Part shown: piece by piece, positions 3,455 to 63,313 of the stretch
Numbering within the stretch: position 1 is the first letter of the stretch
How the letters are laid out: each line of letters begins with the position of its first letter
Source of the DNA: Bacteroidetes bacterium RIFCSPLOWO2_12_FULL_37_12
GTDB taxonomy: Bacteria; Bacteroidota; Bacteroidia; 2-12-FULL-37-12
Direction: 5' to 3'
Length of the DNA: 64,000 nucleotides
Assembly (NCBI GenBank): GCA_001769655.1
Contig: MEPC01000042.1
Location: 93,125-157,124 of the forward strand
Program-made: the position numbers and the translations under genes
The notes under the pieces: generated by a model
Seen by the model: only the letters and a program-made list of their open reading frames with translations
Told to the model about the DNA's origin: nothing
Database searches by the model: none

Positions 3455-4741
3455 CTAACACCCCATTTCCCCAACATCCCTCCCAATATCCCTCCTATAA
3501 TACCTCCCCTCCCATTGAATTTTTTCTGCAGAAGCAAAAGATTTTTTTAGCGCTTCTTCTCCGGTCTTTCCCAAGGAAGATAAGGCAAGCACCCTTCCAC
3601 CGTTTGTAAAAAAGTTACCGTTTTCTAAGCGGGTTCCTGAATGAAATACGAGGGTATCTTTCACTTCTTCCAAACCCGAAATTTTTTTATTTTTTTCATA
3701 CTCACCCGGATAACCTCCGGAGGCAAGAACAACGGTTGCAATAGAATTTGTTGATATTTTTAAATCACAGGTATTTAATTTTTTTTCTGCACAGCAATGA
3801 AAAAGTTCCAGCAAATCAGTTTCTATTCTCGGTAACACCGCTTCTGTTTCGGGGTCACCCATTCTTACATTGTATTCCAAAACGTAGGGTTCATCTTTGC
3901 AAATCATCAATCCTATAAAAAGAAAACCGGTGTATGGAATAGCATCTTTCTGCAATCCCCGGATGCTCGGTATTATAATCTTTTCTTCAATTTTTTTCAT
4001 TAAGCCGGTTGTCACAAAAGGTACCGGTGAAATAGCGCCCATGCCTCCTGTATTCATTCCGGTATCTCCTTCTCCTATGCGTTTGTAGTCCTTGGCACAG
4101 GGCAATATTTTATAGGTTTTTCCATCGGTCAAAACAAATACCGAAACCTCAATGCCTTCCAGGTACTGTTCAATAACCACTTGTATCCCCGCGGAACCGA
4201 ATTTTTCCTTGAGCAAGATTTCTTCAAGGAAATATTCTGCTTCTTCCGAGTTTTTGCAGATGAGCACTCCTTTTCCTGCGGCTAATCCATCTGCTTTGAG
4301 CACTAATGGAAATGAATTTGATCTGATAAAATTAATCCCTTCTTTGAATGTTTTGGGTGTAAATGTTTTATAATTAGCAGTAGGTATGTTATGTTTTATC
4401 AGGAATTGCTTGGCGAAATCCTTGCTACCTTCCAATAAGGCGCCGGATTTGGAAGGTCCGATAATTTTTAATGATTCGAATGATTTAATCGGCTTCAAAT
4501 AATCAACTACCCCCTTCACGAGGGGTTCTTCGGGTCCTACCACAAGCATTTCAATTTTTTCATCCTTAATAAACTCTGAAATGGCAGAAAAATCATTTAC
4601 ACCGATTGAAATGTTTGTGCCACAGGAAGTAGTGCCACCATTTCCCGGAGCAAAAAATAATTTATTGCAGTGTGGGCTTTGTTTTATTTTCCATCCGAAG
4701 GCATGCTCTCTGCCGCCGGAACCGAGGATGAGGGTGTTCAT
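3455..4741 (-). CDS. purD: Phosphoribosylamine--glycine ligase
   Basis: MNTLILGSGGREHAFGWK..FAPGNGGT is the hallmark PurD N-terminus. The track ORF begins at 4810 but the conserved start is the internal Met at 4741. Confidence 0.85.
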   Translation of the reverse strand: MNTLILGSGGREHAFGWKIKQSPHCNKLFFAPGNGGTTSCGTNISIGVNDFSAISEFIKDEKIEMLVVGPEEPLVKGVVDYLKPIKSFESLKIIGPSKSGALLEGSKDFAKQFLIKHNIPTANYKTFTPKTFKEGINFIRSNSFPLVLKADGLAAGKGVLICKNSEEAEYFLEEILLKEKFGSAGIQVVIEQYLEGIEVSVFVLTDGKTYKILPCAKDYKRIGEGDTGMNTGGMGAISPVPFVTTGLMKKIEEKIIIPSIRGLQKDAIPYTGFLFIGLMICKDEPYVLEYNVRMGDPETEAVLPRIETDLLELFHCCAEKKLNTCDLKISTNSIATVVLASGGYPGEYEKNKKISGLEEVKDTLVFHSGTRLENGNFFTNGGRVLALSSLGKTGEEALKKSFASAEKIQWEGRYYRRDIGRDVGEMGC

Positions 4742-4868: not shown

Positions 4869-5686
4869 TAAAACTTGATTTGTTTTGGTAAAGTTCTCCT
4901 AAAATAGTCACAAAAAACCGCTGTAGCCGTTGCCACATTCAGGGATTCCGCTTTCCCAAAACGGGGAATGGTAAGTGGCACTGTTATATATTTTAAAAGG
5001 GTATCTGATATTCCATGGGCTTCGTTTCCTATCAGTAAGATACCATTTTTGTTTAGTTTCGTTGTATGCAGGTTTTTTCCGTTCAGTACCGCACCATAAA
5101 TTTCGGTTTTGTTTTTGTATTTTTCAAAATAATCCTCAAGATGAATATAGAATGCATTTACTCTTGACCATGAACCCATGGTTGCATGCAGTACTTTTGG
5201 ATTAAAAAAATCAACTGTATTTTTGGAACAAAGAATATCTGTGAAACCATACCAATCGGCTACACGGATTAAAGCACCAAAATTACCGGGGTCGCTTATA
5301 TGAGCAAATACCAGCACAAGTTTTGAAGTAGGGTCTGGGAGAAGTGTTTTATGAGTTGCCGGTATTTCTAAAAGAGCGATAGAGGAATTATTAGTTTCGA
5401 GCGTTCCTGCACGTTGAAGTTCATTAGGACTTGTAGCGTTGAAAATACTCATAAAAGGTTCTAATTCCTTTTTATTTGAGTCAAAAAATTGTTTGCTTCC
5501 ATAAATTACCTTTATTTTGTATGACGTCTTAAGACATTCCAGAACATTGGTTGCTCCTTCTACAAAGAAAGTGTTGTTTTTTTCCCTATACTTTTTTTGA
5601 TGAAGTGAATGGAGGTGTTTTATTTCAGCGTTGGTCATTGGGCACTGGTTTATCGCTTTCGTTTGTGTCCTCACAAACGAAGTCAT
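4868..5686 (-). CDS. SpoU/TrmH-family RNA 2'-O-methyltransferase
   Basis: Carries the FVEGATNVLE, GNFGALIRVADWYG, LIGNEAHGIS and SLNVATATAV motifs of SpoU methylases. The true start may be the Met at 5638. Confidence 0.7.
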   Translation of the reverse strand: MTSFVRTQTKAINQCPMTNAEIKHLHSLHQKKYREKNNTFFVEGATNVLECLKTSYKIKVIYGSKQFFDSNKKELEPFMSIFNATSPNELQRAGTLETNNSSIALLEIPATHKTLLPDPTSKLVLVFAHISDPGNFGALIRVADWYGFTDILCSKNTVDFFNPKVLHATMGSWSRVNAFYIHLEDYFEKYKNKTEIYGAVLNGKNLHTTKLNKNGILLIGNEAHGISDTLLKYITVPLTIPRFGKAESLNVATATAVFCDYFRRTLPKQIKF

Positions 5687-5699
5687 TGAATTTTAAAAA

Positions 5700-7979
5700 A
5701 TGAAAATTCTGCGAAACATAAGAATAATTTTATTACCGGTAATAATAGTATGCATTAACGGATGTACGGCTACACATTTTCTCAAAGATAATGAAATTCT
5801 GCTTAATAAAATAAAAATCAAGGGTGGGAAAAATGTTAAAACCGATAATATTAAATATTTGCTATCACGCCAAAAACCAAACCGGAGAATAATCGGTACA
5901 CGACCCTATCTTGCGTTATATAATTTAGGAAGCTATTTTAAAAATCCGGATAACATTTTCCGGAGAACGTTGGGTGAACCCCCCGTTTTATTTGATTCTA
6001 CGCTTGCCGAAAACATTCGGAAAGATATTTTGCGCCTTTATCAAAGCAAAGGGTATTTGCATGCTGAAATAGGACTAAAAATTAAACTTAAAAACCGCCA
6101 GGCAAAACTTGAATATCTTATTGTTGAAAAAAAACCCTTTTATATTTCCAATGTTACCTATAACTATGAAAACAAGGAAATGGAAGCCCTGTTTTCATAC
6201 GAAAACAATGAGGATCGCATGTTGAAACCCGGAATTATCTTTGATGAGGATGTCTTGGGAAAAGAAAGAGTCAGAATGGAACAAAAATTAAGAAATCAGG
6301 GGTATTATTATTTTAATAAAGAGTATATATATTTTGAAATTGACACCTCTAACCATAAAAGAGATGCTAAAGTACATTTAATTCTTAAAAATCCATCTTC
6401 CGATAGTGCTCATAACATTTATTATATAAAGGATGTTTTTGTTATGACAGATGCAACTGCTTCTGAGAGCGAAAAAAACCGTGACACCAGCAATTATGAA
6501 GGTGTATTTTTTTTAAACTACCGGAAAAAATATTCTGAAAAAGTTCTGTACCGGAAAATCAGAATCCGTCCCACGAGCTTATTCAGAGCAGGTAATATAA
6601 TGGCGACTCAGAATCTATTAAGTGACATGGGTATTTTTAAGTTTATCACTATAAAGAATGAACATCTCCGTGACACAACGGGCAGGTTTCTCAGAACGTT
6701 CATAAATCTAACCCCAATGGAAAAGTACAGTTACAGTTTTCAGTTTGATGTCACGTTGAGAGAACTTGAAGGGGTGCAAACACCAGGAATAGCAGGAACC
6801 ATGCTATTTACTGTAAGAAATTTATTTGGAGGCGCTCAGATTTTGAATTCGCGCTTTCACGGGGGGGTTGATTTTCAAGCAGGTTCCTCAAACACAAACG
6901 GAGAAGAAAAACTGTTTACCGGAAACCAGGAATTAGGGGCTGAGTTCTCATTATTATTTCCATTTTTCTGGTATCCTACTCACAGCGGCGAACAATTCAG
7001 ACCTTATAATCCAAAAACAAGGATCACAACCGGTTTTTTTCATGAACAGCGAAAATTATACAAACGCACCAGTTTGAATTTTTCTTATAATTTCGACTGG
7101 AGAAAAAATATTTACTCACGCACTTCATTTGCACCATTCGATATTAGTTTGGTTTTTTCGGACCTGAGTCCGGAGTTTTCTGATTTTTTACAGCTACAGC
7201 AACAGAAAGGGAATTTTTTAATTAATAGCTTTGACCGTGCATTGGTAACGAGTTTAAAGCTGATTCACACCTATAATAATTCATCCCTTATATCTGTAAA
7301 AAAATCCATCTTTTTCAGAGGGTTGCTTGAGGGTGGAGGGTTTGGTATTTATTATCTGCGCCAATTATTAGATCCGACTATTCCCAGCGAAACACATATA
7401 ACAACTCTGAAATTGAGGTTATACAGATATTTAAGAGGCAGTGGTGACTTGAGATACTATTTACCCGTGCGGAACATTTCAGTTTTTGCGAATCGCCTGT
7501 ATGTAGGATTAACAGGTCCGCTTTTAAAATCAACCGTTTTACCTTATGATAAATATTTTTTTACAGGTGGGAGCAACAGCAACCGTGCCTGGCTTGCAAG
7601 ACGATTAGGTCCAGGAACTTTCAGAGCTGAAAATAACATTTTTGAACAGGGAGGCGAAATTGCATTGGAAAGTTCTTCCGAATTACGTTTTAATATTATC
7701 AAATTCATCAACGGCGCTTTTTTTGTAGATGCCGGAAATATATGGACATTCAATGATGATGTAAGCAGACCGGGAAGCAAATTTCACTTTAATAGCTTTT
7801 TCAAAGAACTTGCGATCAGCAGTGGGTTTGGGTTGCGCTTCGATTTCTCATTTCTCGTTGTCAGATTGGATGGTGCTATAAGAATGTACGACCCGTATTA
7901 TTTGAGTATTAATGAAGACCCTTTTGTTGCAGGCAAATTTGAATCGCAGGTGAACGTGGGAATTGGATATCCGTTTTAG
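5700..7979 (+). CDS. Omp85-family (BamA/TamA-like) outer-membrane protein
   Basis: 759 aa with a lipoprotein-like signal (IIVCINGCTA) and a C-terminal beta-barrel ending ...GIGYPF. The FFVDAGNIW motif is typical of the Omp85 'bacterial surface antigen' C-terminus. Confidence 0.55.
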   Translation: MKILRNIRIILLPVIIVCINGCTATHFLKDNEILLNKIKIKGGKNVKTDNIKYLLSRQKPNRRIIGTRPYLALYNLGSYFKNPDNIFRRTLGEPPVLFDSTLAENIRKDILRLYQSKGYLHAEIGLKIKLKNRQAKLEYLIVEKKPFYISNVTYNYENKEMEALFSYENNEDRMLKPGIIFDEDVLGKERVRMEQKLRNQGYYYFNKEYIYFEIDTSNHKRDAKVHLILKNPSSDSAHNIYYIKDVFVMTDATASESEKNRDTSNYEGVFFLNYRKKYSEKVLYRKIRIRPTSLFRAGNIMATQNLLSDMGIFKFITIKNEHLRDTTGRFLRTFINLTPMEKYSYSFQFDVTLRELEGVQTPGIAGTMLFTVRNLFGGAQILNSRFHGGVDFQAGSSNTNGEEKLFTGNQELGAEFSLLFPFFWYPTHSGEQFRPYNPKTRITTGFFHEQRKLYKRTSLNFSYNFDWRKNIYSRTSFAPFDISLVFSDLSPEFSDFLQLQQQKGNFLINSFDRALVTSLKLIHTYNNSSLISVKKSIFFRGLLEGGGFGIYYLRQLLDPTIPSETHITTLKLRLYRYLRGSGDLRYYLPVRNISVFANRLYVGLTGPLLKSTVLPYDKYFFTGGSNSNRAWLARRLGPGTFRAENNIFEQGGEIALESSSELRFNIIKFINGAFFVDAGNIWTFNDDVSRPGSKFHFNSFFKELAISSGFGLRFDFSFLVVRLDGAIRMYDPYYLSINEDPFVAGKFESQVNVGIGYPF

Positions 7980-7980
7980 C

Positions 7981-8092
7981 TGTGGTAATAAAGTAGTAAT
8001 ACAGTTGTAATACGATTGTAATACCATTGTTTTACCACTGTATTACCATTGTATTACTATTGTATTCACATTGTATTACTTTTGCATAACTA
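7981..8092. repeat. Array of about 10 units of GTAATAC/GTATTAC heptamers at 11-bp spacing. The orientation flips mid-array.
   Basis: GTAATAA agta GTAATAC agtt GTAATAC gatt GTAATAC catt GTTTTAC cact GTATTAC catt GTATTAC tatt GTATTCA catt GTATTAC tttt GCATAAC. The last units contain the TACTTTTG -7 box, 18 nt upstream of the lysC ATG at 8103. Confidence 0.7.
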
Positions 8093-8102
8093 TTATAATC
8101 CC

Positions 8103-9377
8103 ATGCCCCCCCTACTCATCTTTAAATTCGGCGGTGTTTCTGTTCAGGATGCCTCCGCAATTAAAAACACTACATCTATTATAAAAAAATTTGCTGTAGC
8201 CAACCGGCTCCTTCTCGTAATCTCTGCTATGGGCAAAATGACAAATGCATTGGAAGAATTGCATAAACAATATTTTACAAAAAAGAATTTCACTGCCGAA
8301 TTTGAAAAGGTTAAAGCATATCATCGTTCTATTGTGAAAGAACTTTTTTCAGAAACAGTGCATCCGGTTTACGATGAGTTAGAAAATCTTTTTGTAGAAA
8401 TGGAGTGGCACCTCGAAGAAGAACCCTCGAACGATTATGATTTGAGTTATGATCAATTAGTGTCATTCGGTGAACTTATTTCTACTAAAATAATTTCTCA
8501 ATACTTAAACAAAACAGCTGTAAATACCAAATGGGTGGATGCGAGAAGTTTTATTCAGACCGACAATACCTACCGGGATGCGCGTGTCAACTGGGCATTA
8601 ACAGAAAAATTAATTGTCCGTGATATTCCGGGTTTTCTCGAAAAACAAGTGGTATTAACGCAAGGATTTATTGGTGGCACTTCCGAAAATTTTACAACTA
8701 CCCTTGGGAGAGAGGGATCCGATTTTACTGCGGCTATTTTTGCCAAATGCCTGAAAGCCGATTCCATCAATATCTGGAAGGATGTCAGAGGAATACTGAA
8801 TGCCGACCCTAAACTATTTCCCGGAACCGTAAAATACGAACATCTTTCTTACCATCAGATGATAGAAATGGCTTATTATGGGGCTTCTGTAATTCACCCG
8901 AAAACTATAAAGCCATTAGTGGATGCACACATACCCCTTCATGTGAAATGTTTTAAAACACCGGATGAAAAAGGGACGATAGTAGATGAAACGCCGGAAG
9001 AATACATAACACCTGCCATCATTTTGAAAAAAAAGCAATGCCTGTTTTCCCTCTCAGCGAAGGATTATTCGTTTATCACCGAAAAAAATCTAAGCCATAT
9101 TTTTGACACCGCTTTTCGATTCAAATTAAAAATTAATCTGATGCAGAATTCAGCAATCTCTTTCTCAGTTTGTGTGGACGGCCAAACCGGCAAACACAAG
9201 GACTTTTATAATTTTCTCCACAAGGACTTTCACGTTTTATTCAACAAGGATTTGGAATTGCTTACGATTATGCACTACCATGATGATTTGATAAACAAAC
9301 ATACTCATGGAAAAGAAATTTTACTGGTGCAAAAAACGAGGCATACGTTTCAGGCGGTGACGAAGGTGGGGGTATAA
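8103..9377 (+). CDS. lysC: Aspartate kinase
   Basis: LLIFKFGGVSV..LLVISAMGKMTNAL is the amino-acid kinase N-terminus, and C-terminal ACT-like regions follow. The conserved start is the Met at 8103 rather than the track start at 8049. Confidence 0.8.
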   Translation: MPPLLIFKFGGVSVQDASAIKNTTSIIKKFAVANRLLLVISAMGKMTNALEELHKQYFTKKNFTAEFEKVKAYHRSIVKELFSETVHPVYDELENLFVEMEWHLEEEPSNDYDLSYDQLVSFGELISTKIISQYLNKTAVNTKWVDARSFIQTDNTYRDARVNWALTEKLIVRDIPGFLEKQVVLTQGFIGGTSENFTTTLGREGSDFTAAIFAKCLKADSINIWKDVRGILNADPKLFPGTVKYEHLSYHQMIEMAYYGASVIHPKTIKPLVDAHIPLHVKCFKTPDEKGTIVDETPEEYITPAIILKKKQCLFSLSAKDYSFITEKNLSHIFDTAFRFKLKINLMQNSAISFSVCVDGQTGKHKDFYNFLHKDFHVLFNKDLELLTIMHYHDDLINKHTHGKEILLVQKTRHTFQAVTKVGV

Positions 9378-9484
9378 GGTATAGGGATATAGGGATATAG
9401 GGTATAAAGGTATAAAGGTATAAAGGTATAAAGGTATAAAGGTATAGGACGCTCTTTTATACCCTATACCCCTATACCCTTTTA
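9371..9484. terminator. Bidirectional hairpin terminator built from (GGTATAAA)5 and GGTATAGGG tandem units, lying exactly between convergent stop codons
   Basis: ggtatagggatatagggatataggg(tataaagg)5tatagg-acgctctt-ttataccctatacccctataccc. The arms are reverse-complementary. The lysC stop is at 9375-9377 and the GNAT stop at 9482-9484. Confidence 0.55.
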
Positions 9485-19118: not shown

Positions 19119-19124
19119 TAATTA

Positions 19125-19190
19125 GAAATTAGGCATTAGTCATTGGTCATTAGAAATTACAACCAATGACTAATGACTAATGACCAATTT
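19125..19190. terminator. Hairpin built from CATTAGT/CATTGGT heptamer repeats, downstream of the AsmA-family gene
   Basis: aggcattagtcattggtcatta-gaaattacaa-ccaatgactaatgactaatgacca, followed by attttg. Confidence 0.45.
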
Positions 19191-28848: not shown

Positions 28849-28946
28849 ATTAGGGACAATAGATAGTTTTTAGAGATGCCCTTAAATTATTTAGTTCACC
28901 CTAAAAATTATTTTCATATATCCAAAAAATTGTATATCTTTGTCCC

Positions 28947-30184: not shown

Positions 30185-30613
30185 ATGTTTTCCTTAGACC
30201 GTAATAAATTCCTGAAATTCAGTGGCACGTTGATGTCACTGCCTCTGTTGGGGCCTCTTGCAACATTTTTATCCGGTTGCGCGGGTATCAACTACATTCA
30301 GGGTGTTGATTTTAAAAATAAAACCGGAATCACACTAAATGAATTTAAAATTCAGAGTTTTGTGGTGCTGGAAAACGCACATTTCAGAAAACCCGTTTTG
30401 ATTTATAAAAAAAGTGACGCAGAATTTACAAGTGTTTCTTTACGATGCACTCATAAGGGATGCGAGTTAGATCCTTCAGGGAATAAATTGGTTTGTCCCT
30501 GTCATGGTAGTGAATTTTCTTTTGAAGGAAAGGTTTTGAATCCACCTGCAAAAGATGATTTACAAAAATTTCAAACCAGTTTCGATTCGGAATATGTGTA
30601 TGTGCATTATTAA
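30185..30613 (+). CDS. Rieske [2Fe-2S] domain lipoprotein
   Basis: Rieske boxes CTHKGC and CPCHGS, with the lipobox LSGCAG. Confidence 0.7.
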   Translation: MFSLDRNKFLKFSGTLMSLPLLGPLATFLSGCAGINYIQGVDFKNKTGITLNEFKIQSFVVLENAHFRKPVLIYKKSDAEFTSVSLRCTHKGCELDPSGNKLVCPCHGSEFSFEGKVLNPPAKDDLQKFQTSFDSEYVYVHY

Positions 30614-30692
30614 TACAATGGTAATACAATGATAAACAACCGTATTACAACTGCATTACAACCGTATTACAACTGTTTTACAACGTAATAAT
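30611..30692. repeat. Second 11-bp-phased GTAATAC/GTATTAC heptamer array (8 units), running from the Rieske stop codon to 7 nt before the next ATG
   Basis: TAATAC aatg GTAATAC aatg ATAAACA acc GTATTAC aact GCATTAC aacc GTATTAC aact GTTTTAC aac GTAATAA. Same family as 7981-8092. Confidence 0.7.
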
Positions 30693-31868: not shown

Positions 31869-32228
31869 GTTAGCCCATTTCCTATGCACATCAAAAATAA
31901 ATTAACCCTATATTTGAAAAATTTATATAACTTTCAGGTTTTAGCTTATTAGCTCTGAAAGGCATACACGTCAACTGTTACTGCTCAGCTGTATGTTTAA
32001 TTCAGAAAAATAAAAGAAATTAAAAAATGTTCAGTGCCAAACGAACAACTAACAATATTCACGTAATCATCCCTTTAAGGTCAAACTTTCTTTTTTCGTT
32101 TGTCATTTTTTCTTTTTATTACTTGTTCATTGTAAATTGAACATTTGAAATTGTTCATTTTTTCTCTAATTTTCTGCTGTGTAGTTAAGAACTTTTTTCT
32201 CACTAATCAATAATCTCCGAATTCCCCC

Positions 32229-47025: not shown

Positions 47026-47222
47026 TAATTAATAATTATACTGTAAACGGAACAAATTTCAGCAAATGTCTATATTGGCATATAGTTCTATTGTTTTATT
47101 GTTTCATTGTTAATTGACTCCATGATTTCAGCACAACAATGAAACTATGTAGCAATGGAACAATGAACAGAGTTACAAGAAAATTTATACCGATTGCAGT
47201 ATAATAATTAATAATTCCTATA
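47026..47222. repeat. A ~190-bp imperfect palindrome with 19-bp terminal inverted repeats (ATAATTAATAATTATACTG / CAGTATAATAATTAATAAT) and nested inner inverted repeats
   Basis: Fills the whole gap between the WD40 gene and serS. The inner arms are ttctattgttttattgtttcattgtt and aacaatgaaactatg..caatggaacaatgaa. Confidence 0.55.
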
Positions 47223-47225
47223 CCC

Positions 47226-53491: not shown

Positions 53492-53578
53492 TTTCAACTT
53501 TAACTCAAAAACATATTAGTATTTTTTCGTAAATATATTATAGCTACTCCGGTGTGTATTATTTCTCGCAAATATTAT

Positions 53579-53680
53579 GTCACGCAAAGACGCAAAGTAC
53601 GCAGAGTATTAAGTACGCAGAGTAAAAAAATCATAAATGATTTTTTCTTTGCCTCTTTGCCTCTTTGCGGCTTTGCGTGA
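53579..53680. repeat. Complex hairpin built from (CGCAAAG)2 and (CTTTGCCT)2 tandem arms around a central perfect palindrome AAAAAAATCAT-AA-ATGATTTTTTT
   Basis: The outer 18-bp arms tcacgcaaagacgcaaag and ctttgcggctttgcgtga are reverse-complementary, and the + strand is followed by gaacttttttt. Confidence 0.5.
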
Positions 53681-53775
53681 GAACTTTTTTTATGCTGAAT
53701 AGTTACAATATTTTCAAATTTCTTCTTTTTCCTTTCTTCTTTCTTCTCTCTTCTTTCTCCTTTTTCCTTTCTCCT

Positions 53776-53912
53776 TTTTCCTTTTTCCTTTTTCCTTTTT
53801 CCTTTTTCCTTTTTCCTTTTTCCTTTTTCCTTTTTCCTTTTTCCTTTTTCCTTTTTCCTTTTTCCTTTTTCCTTTTTCCTTTTTCCTTTTTCCTTTTTCC
53901 TTTTTCCTTTTT
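53776..53912. repeat. Heptanucleotide microsatellite (CCTTTTT)n, about 19 perfect copies, flanked by degenerate CT-rich repeats spanning 53700-53960
   Basis: The tandem is directly visible. It produces the spurious 'KGKRKKE' and 'FLFPFSF' ORFs on the two strands. It lies between the 3' end of gene 53948-55606 and the promoter region of the porin-like gene. Confidence 0.9.
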
Positions 53913-53947
53913 CCCTTTCTCTCCTTCCCCCTTTTCCCATTCTCCCC

Positions 53948-61641: not shown

Positions 61642-61744
61642 TAAACCAGATTTGCCATTGTCCGCTAATGTAACAAAGTAGTAATAGCAAGTATTAATAA
61701 AAATCAAAAAAATTCACGTAAATTTGCTCTTTTAAATATAACCC

Positions 61745-63232: not shown

Positions 63233-63236
63233 TAAT

Positions 63237-63307
63237 GATTTACGATTTTTGATTTACGATTTACGATTTTCTATTTTCTATTTTCTATCTTCTATTTTCT
63301 ATCTTTC
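63237..63307. repeat. Tandem heptamers (GATTTAC)3-4 then (TATTTTC/TATCTTC)6 then C9, abutting the LpxL-like start codon
   Basis: gatttacgatttttgatttacgatttacgattttctattttctattttctatcttctattttctatctttccccccccc. It begins 4 nt from the ATG at 63232. Confidence 0.8.
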
Positions 63308-63313
63308 CCCCCC

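Follow-up and report, generated by a model that had tools for sequence, protein, structure and literature searches.

An 11-bp GTAWTAC array upstream of lysC belongs to a dispersed family of intergenic tandem repeats in a Bacteroidetes bacterium

Analysis of the 64-kb stretch of DNA studied here (the window) revealed that the phased heptamer array upstream of lysC belongs to a dispersed family of 11-bp tandem repeats with two unit types, RRTTGTAATAC (A-type) and CAYTGTATTAC (T-type). The array is very unlikely to be a lysC-specific operator and is predicted not to be intrinsically bent. Tentatively, and with somewhat less than even confidence, it is read as a slippage-prone dispersed repeat of the long simple sequence repeat (LSSR) or STRR kind, which at this locus would supply a 3′ stem-loop to the upstream gene and whose decayed end would have been recruited as the −7 box of lysC.

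The array (array 1) occupies the spacer between a POTRA/Omp85-like gene and lysC. Units 1–6, read from 7981, are TGTG-GTAATAA, AGTA-GTAATAC, AGTT-GTAATAC, GATT-GTAATAC, CATT-GTTTTAC and CACT-GTATTAC, and units 7–11 are CATT-GTATTAC, TATT-GTATTCA, CATT-GTATTAC, TTTT-GCATAAC and TATT-ATAATCC, followed by C and the lysC ATG at 8103. The match to GTAWTAC is exact in six of the heptamers and degenerate in the other five, and two variable bases follow the conserved core TTGTAWTAC. The phasing at 11 bp that had originally been predicted, with a GTAATAC half followed by a GTATTAC half, was borne out, with 11 units in register and a degenerate centre. The two halves are near reverse complements, 10 of 11 positions being pairable as RNA when G·U pairs are allowed. 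The boundaries first proposed are also correct, in that the array begins 1 nt past the upstream stop codon (TAG, 7977–7979) and position 8092 lies 11 nt before the lysC ATG. TRF detected a period of 11 (6.8 copies, score 94) together with a 22-bp super-period, the latter being shown by both GTAWTAC arrays of the window. Exact heptamer pairs occur three times at 11 bp and four times at 22 bp, where 300 dinucleotide shuffles gave means of 0.007 and 0, respectively, and GTAWTAC itself occurs 14 times in the 64-kb window, compared with 4.8 expected, with 9 of the 14 inside the two arrays. With these figures the pattern is not at random frequency: it is real and far beyond chance. The POTRA gene was called in six same-species contigs, and Bacteroidetes bacterium RIFCSPLOWO2_02_FULL_36_8 has an identical LysC protein, which bears the name aspartate kinase.

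Table 1. Coordinates of array 1 and its flanking genes, of the related arrays and of other tandem arrays in the window
Feature	Sequence	Positions	Strand	Description
Upstream gene, 759-aa POTRA-domain (Omp85/BamA-like) outer-membrane protein	Window	5700–7979	+	From the ORF list; Pfam POTRA
Whole array 1	Window	7981–8101	+	11 head-to-tail units, each exactly 11 bp, zero indels (read in register; TRF; shuffles)
A-half	Window	7981–8024	+	Four units RRTT-GTAATAC; unit 1 degenerate (GTAATAA)
Predicted long imperfect RNA hairpin	Window	7984–8080	+	A-half with T-half; MFE −33.8 kcal/mol, z −4.0
Centre unit	Window	8025–8035	+	Degenerate, CATT-GTTTTAC; loop region of the predicted hairpin
T-half	Window	8036–8079	+	Four units CAYT-GTATTAC; one degenerate (GTATTCA)
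−7 box of lysC, TACTTTTG	Window	8077–8084	+	TAnnTTTG, Bacteroidetes type; last intact heptamer plus first decayed unit
Two decayed terminal units, TTTTGCATAAC and TATTATAATCC	Window	8080–8101	+	From the position of the −7 box, likely lysC transcription start region and short 5′ leader
lysC, aspartate kinase, 424 aa	Window	8103–9377	+	Pfam AA_kinase
GGTATAAA/TATACCC array	Window	9378–9481		lysC/GNAT convergent spacer; RNA z −2.9/−4.6
CATTAGT/ACTAATG array	Window	19119–19190		Downstream of gene; RNA z −6.5
Array 2, same composite element, inverted	Window	30610–30691	−	A-type units, degenerate centre, T-type units, reading the − strand
TTGTTCA/TGAACA array	Window	32123–32160		Downstream of gene; tandem plus inverted run
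ATTGTTT/AACAATG array	Window	about 47080–47180		Downstream of gene; RNA z −7.7 (47026–47225)
CGCAAAG/CTTTGCG array	Window	about 53557–53680		Downstream of gene; tandem plus inverted run
coaE/SWIB array	Metagenome contig L155	1465–1662		Starts inside the coaE stop; coaE/SWIB spacer
SWIB/E2 array	Metagenome contig L155	2213–2327		Single unit type; SWIB/E2 spacer, from a canonical terminator to the TAccTTTG promoter of the E2 acyltransferase gene
zapA/rny array	Metagenome contig L235	6839–7014		zapA/rny spacer

A diverged second copy had been placed at 30611–30692. A copy does exist there (array 2, 30610–30691), but rather than being merely diverged it is the whole composite in reverse complement, with a local alignment score against array 1 of 83 in that orientation, compared with 50 for the direct strand and 15.5 ± 2.6 for shuffles. 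Array 2, which includes one 10-bp unit, separates a Rieske-protein gene from a 389-aa gene without known function; the TAA stop of the Rieske-protein gene falls within the first unit. Further copies were obtained from a metagenome scan for two T-type units, a query into which the recurrence of YATT in the spacer is partly built. The matches listed included many chance ones and two contigs, L155 and L235, with much longer arrays that contain both unit types of array 1 in the same A-then-T polarity, one L155 array excepted. Exact protein look-up found the proteins of both contigs to be identical to those of the RIFCSPLOWO2_02_FULL_36_8 MAG, and because the protein sequences are identical, L155, L235 and the window can be assigned to one organism. 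The family comprises at least five arrays of about 7 to 18 units at unrelated loci, two in the window, two on L155 and one on L235. The A-run precedes the T-run at four of the five loci, complementary halves are present in four of the five arrays, and a degenerate centre unit lies between the halves in array 2 and in L155 too. Relative to the downstream gene, one array (that at lysC) is forward and four are reversed. No conserved ends or shared flanks were found among the five arrays, and a MITE/REP-like element with defined ends was rejected, as the flanks share no sequence. The 9 kb beyond the window end contain no further GTAWTAC array.

Across the 57 units of the five arrays, variability at the core positions is about one-tenth of that at the first two positions of the spacer. 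The minor-allele fractions of A-type units are 0–0.05 at the heptamer positions and 0.28–0.41 at spacer positions 1 and 2, which toggle between A and G, and the conserved flank of the heptamer is one-sided, with TT at the 5′ side only. This uneven variability suggests constraint on the 9-bp core TTGTAWTAC, for which a protein site, pairing within a stem or a need for homology during slippage could each account.

The suggestion that the array is a regulator site for lysC did not withstand comparison of the copies. Because they sit in the coaE/SWIB, SWIB/E2 and zapA/rny spacers and, inverted, before another, unrelated gene, a lysC-specific operator is very unlikely. A broader form of the idea is that a dimeric protein, either a ribbon-helix-helix (RHH) protein of the ParR/ParG/omega kind or a nucleoid-associated one, binds each GTAWTAC, forms a polymer on one face of the helix, and marks or insulates the boundaries of genes throughout the genome. 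The exact 11-bp phasing and the palindromic, conserved core with its variable spacers would fit such binding, as would the phased GTAWTAC arrays from many phyla among the matches listed from a reference-genome scan (three GTAWTAC at 11 bp, in genomes other than the source genome). One Firmicutes sequence in that scan (L062) carries two arrays, each with six GTAWTAC heptamers spaced at 11 bp in mixed orientation (4557–4618 and 5437–5498), which flank parA and precede a gene matching Pfam ParG; L073 is identical, and L059 and L111 have this arrangement also. An array that flanks parA and precedes a ParG-family gene is the classic RHH operator/centromere layout of type Ib partition systems. The L062 par sequence is found in MAGs assigned to Acutalibacteraceae and Agathobacter, so the L062/L073 element is probably a mobile one that carries a type Ib partition site; a search of a plasmid database with the L062 par cassette gave no match.

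By analogy with these systems, a dimeric binder would be a mechanism of a real and known kind, the contextual hallmarks of which are absent at the five arrays. No DNA-binding, parA, parG or other regulator gene adjoins any of them, the neighbours being genes for the POTRA protein, LysC, GNAT, the Rieske protein, CoaE, SWIB, E2, ZapA and Rny, and a tblastn search of 83 kb of this organism, a weak test, found no ParG-like sequence. Moreover, a symmetric dimer would not tell A from T centres, yet the two forms are segregated, and the one-sided 5′ TT flank also argues against it. Finally, window arrays of unrelated units share the same layout (see below), which is beyond what one protein explains and points to structure or a mutational process rather than to one sequence-specific protein. 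A protein-binding array is unlikely on this evidence. Its furthest extension would have the GTAWTAC 11-bp arrays as recognition arrays for a chromosomal protein (ParG/RHH-like or nucleoid-associated) that coats gene-boundary spacers, possibly in other phyla too, with the A-run/T-run polarity setting the direction of a nucleoprotein filament and the plasmid parA-parG arrays being the mobile counterpart of chromosomal boundary-marking; drawn by analogy, this is decidedly improbable.

Other phased arrays of this heptamer were also seen. The Bacteroidales MAG RGIG4772 (JAFURZ01) holds at least 25 intergenic copies of a ~110-bp perfect palindrome (L012, L017, L020, L026, L027 and ~20 more), CCTCCGCCATTTTAAC(GGTAGTATTAC)x3...(GTAATACTACC)x3GTTAAAATGGCGGAGG, with the same heptamer and 11-bp period; with its true inverted halves and conserved ends it looks to be of REP/MITE type. 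Near-identical units (CATT, TATT or AACT plus GTATTAC) form 11-bp arrays in a Saccharibacteria MAG (L010), in Patescibacteria (L136), in a Methanosarcina barkeri MAG (L076/L171) and in Bacteroidales MAGs (L033/L038/L086/L069). The arrays in distant lineages could be due to chance plus ascertainment, to mis-binning, to transfer or to a shared propensity of the unit to expand.

As RNA, the + strand of array 1 is predicted to form a hairpin of ~95 nt, and none of 200 shuffles folds as well. A-form and T-form heptamers pair perfectly in the stem, as do three of the four spacer positions with G·U allowed; the stem begins 5 nt past the upstream stop and is followed by UUUUG at 8080–8084. The − strand RNA gives −27.2 kcal/mol (z −2.9), and the array folded as DNA gives −14.4. 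In its modelled form the lysC hairpin is similar to a 3′ stem-loop of the REP type or to a terminator of atypical form. A simple scan for intrinsic terminators makes no call on array 1, whose stem is A/U-rich and has only UUUU after it; canonical GC-rich terminators are present in this organism. The family as a whole cannot be maintained by RNA folding: in four of the five members the transcribed strand folds less well than the other one, and the L155 array in the SWIB/E2 spacer, with its one unit type, forms no long hairpin. The RNA of the + strand of array 2, which is its transcribed strand, is predicted to be unstructured (z about 0). An RNA hairpin as a family-wide function is weakened as a candidate by the usually poorer folding of the transcribed strand; at lysC, the predicted fold may matter.

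Intrinsic curvature had been offered as an alternative to regulator binding, and intrinsically curved DNA or an UP-element-like promoter enhancer would be in keeping with an AT-rich array whose 11-bp period is near the helical repeat and which lies directly upstream of a promoter. In a dinucleotide wedge model, a moderate test with Bolshoy/Trifonov parameters, array 1 is nevertheless predicted to be straight, with an end-to-end/contour ratio of 0.966 (57th percentile of the window), compared with 0.40 for a phased A-tract control; pure array units gave 0.98–0.995. The array unit contains no A-tracts, and the inverted and non-promoter copies oppose a promoter-specific role, which leaves this the least credible of the readings considered. 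Periods of 7 and 8 in sister arrays of the window show that a period of 11 bp need not be due to the helical repeat.

A −7 box had also been predicted in the final units of the array, and TACTTTTG was found there, its end 18 nt from the lysC ATG, a distance like that of other TAnnTTTG boxes in the window (these include 18, 18, 15, 22 and 23 nt). TAnnTTTG is present 4–30 nt before the start in 10 of the 40 window genes, the background density being 0.65 per kb per strand, and because the motif is enriched at this position the promoter type is in use by the organism. On the sequence, lysC very probably has its own promoter, made of the last intact heptamer together with the decayed unit next to it; an ordinary unit junction (TAC/CATTG) is a 7/8 match to the TAnnTTTG box. 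No −33 TTTG is found at the expected 19–21 bp from the lysC −7 box, the nearest ATTG being 14 and 25 bp away. A lysine riboswitch (L-box) before lysC was ruled out, there being no match to its covariance model, or to that of any Rfam family, at gathering score in the window; near the array only miRNA-hairpin look-alikes appeared, far below threshold.

The TAnnTTTG boxes ending 4–30 nt before starts imply 5′ leaders that are very short or absent. CCC directly precedes the ATG in 7 of the 40 genes (e.g. 8100–8102, 28944–28946, 32226–32228, 47223–47225 and 61742–61744) and other window genes have ACC or a C-run there, which is far above the expectation from base composition; lysC continues ATGCCCCCCC. 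In this organism, the pre-ATG CCC may signal the start site or initiation.

The intergenic DNA around array 1 is rich in tandem repeats. With thresholds of a period of at least 5 and a TRF score of at least 40, the window contains 20 tandem arrays, compared with 0–4 in shuffles, and tandem repeats make up 14.3% of intergenic and 0.37% of coding bases. Tandem arrays are present in 11 of the 19 spacers with a gene 3′ end and in none of the six divergent (promoter-only) spacers of the window. Arrays of unrelated units are also built as a tandem run and then an inverted run, and the downstream spacers of this build have units of 7–9 bp and RNA z scores down to −7.7. The lysC/GNAT spacer (about 9371–9480) consists of ~8 GGTATAAA/GGGATATA units and then three inverted TATACCC, and is predicted to fold at −41 kcal/mol.

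Among other repeats of the window, CTTTTTC x27.7 (95% matches, 53725–53918) lies in a 450-bp spacer between two minus-strand genes, and the 127-aa ORF listed at this array is probably an artefact of the repeat. The whole 81-bp spacer at 63233–63313, which separates two minus-strand genes, is made of GATTTAC(GA) and ATTTTCT heptamer runs ending in C7 and has no hairpin potential. The repeats of 120-bp period at 750–1071 and 2439–2841 are coding, being inside the gene for a 1187-aa TPR protein, and are unrelated to the lysC array.

Array 1 is identical in seven contigs, which are at least 99.9% identical overall, and array 2 is identical in three other same-species contigs (four in total), again with an overall identity of at least 99.9%. 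The nearest LysC homologues available are 52–56% identical (Sphingobacteriaceae), too distant for a comparison of orthologous loci. Near-identical strains differ by a single indel over 19 kb, one of 16 bp, or two 8-bp units, in the GGTATAAA array just downstream of lysC, where two same-species contigs are without those two units.

One reading of the family is that it is neutral or selfish repeat DNA, in which slippage products are tolerated in spacers, the hairpin and −7 box are by-products of a near-palindromic, TA/TTG-rich unit and the array as such would be functionless. It is in line with the many unrelated intergenic tandem repeats, including the non-palindromic CTTTTTC and GATTTAC/ATTTTCT arrays, with the copy-number difference between strains in the neighbouring GGTATAAA array, with the variable orientation to genes, variable length and lack of conserved ends of the GTAWTAC arrays, and with the one member that is without a second half. 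It is harder to reconcile with a 9-bp core that is nearly invariant at five loci where two spacer positions are free to vary, with two unit types that keep the same polarity at four of the five, and with divergent promoter spacers that contain no arrays. Neutral repeat DNA is therefore a possible but doubtful explanation. A phase-variable promoter, with gain or loss of 11-bp units altering lysC expression, would have a precedent in the simple sequence repeats of Haemophilus or Neisseria promoters and would draw on the overlap of the array with the promoter and on the change of copy number in the GGTATAAA array next to it. Array 1, however, does not differ among the seven contigs, its units precede the −7 box and do not separate promoter elements, lysC has a housekeeping function, and the same array type occupies non-promoter positions elsewhere, all of which makes phase variation highly improbable.

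In the slippage-prone repeat reading favoured here, the arrays would grow and shrink via replication slippage, perhaps aided by the near-palindromic heptamer and 4-nt spacer, which allow pairing between adjacent heptamers and would thus be in keeping with the 22-bp super-period. The A-run is complementary to the T-run, so that the POTRA transcript could fold into the ~95-nt stem-loop ending in UUUU, which would act in the manner of a REP element by attenuating transcription or by protecting the 3′ end of the upstream mRNA. Units at the decayed distal end would have been co-opted as the TACTTTTG box and a short lysC leader. Counted in favour are the alignment of array 2 over the whole composite, the three arrays of the same MAG, the 20 tandem arrays of the window, the GGTATAAA indel, the array 1 fold (z −4.0), the absence of arrays from the six divergent spacers and the TAnnTTTG box 18 nt before the ATG. 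Counted against are the AU-rich stem with only four U, the weaker folding of transcribed strands, the invariant copy number of array 1 among contigs that are at least 99.9% identical overall and the ~ten-fold conservation of the core, which a protein site would also explain. Taken together, the slippage-prone repeat with a role at lysC is the reading to which most weight is given, short of an even chance; the neutral repeat is less probable, and the array-binding protein still less so.

If the slippage-prone repeat reading is true, the locus would be a clean example of a repeat-rich bacterium building its gene spacers from short tandem units, with one array serving as the 3′ stem-loop of one gene and as the promoter box of the next. 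This would be of use for promoter and terminator annotation in uncultivated Bacteroidetes, and carries the caution that a phased repeat beside a gene is not automatically the operator of that gene. Should the core and the A-then-T polarity reflect a binding protein instead, they would offer a means of studying how chromosomes or transcription units are organised in a lineage without cultured relatives.

A literature search for the array unit sequence returned only primers and unrelated matches, and no published description was found. Among known systems, RHH operator and centromere arrays include ParR-parC of plasmid R1 (ten 11-bp repeats), ParG-parH of TP228 and the omega heptads of pSM19035. 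The GTAWTAC family is like these in having short repeats about one helical turn apart, direct and inverted, that overlap a promoter, and binding here would be by analogy. Unlike them, it is chromosomal, lies between housekeeping genes with no par or RHH gene nearby, and has five or more copies. The REP/BIME of enterobacteria are dispersed palindromic elements with known roles in mRNA 3′ protection and attenuation. The likeness to these consists of multiple copies in intergenic positions, mostly at gene 3′ ends, and an imperfect palindrome able to form an mRNA stem-loop, whereas the GTAWTAC family varies in length, lacks conserved ends, consists of units in tandem and includes one member that is not palindromic.

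The TAACTGA heptamer direct repeats are intergenic in Beggiatoaceae, Cyanobacteria and five Bacteroidetes (MacGregor 2015, PMC4679880). These are mostly set in one orientation just before start codons, from which a translational role was suggested, their function being unknown, and the spacers of the Bacteroidetes concerned hold several repeat kinds (PMC4679880). Both they and the GTAWTAC family have one short unit in tandem in many spacers, often adjoining start or stop codons; the GTAWTAC family differs in unit and period, in its mixed orientation and in arrays that begin at the upstream stop codon.

LSSR have units of 5–11 nt (Mrazek et al. 2007, as summarised in PMC4679880). Like the GTAWTAC family, LSSR and the cyanobacterial STRR heptamers are short head-to-tail units, strongly intergenic, at many loci of a repeat-rich genome; a slippage-type change of copy number is seen in the sister GGTATAAA array. 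LSSR and STRR-type intergenic repeats, to which the TAACTGA repeats also belong, are the closest class, their tandem short units, intergenic bias and multi-locus recurrence all being found here. The GTAWTAC family differs from them in its 11-nt unit and in being self-complementary, and to this class it adds a palindromic heptamer core and the polarity of two subtypes, A then T.
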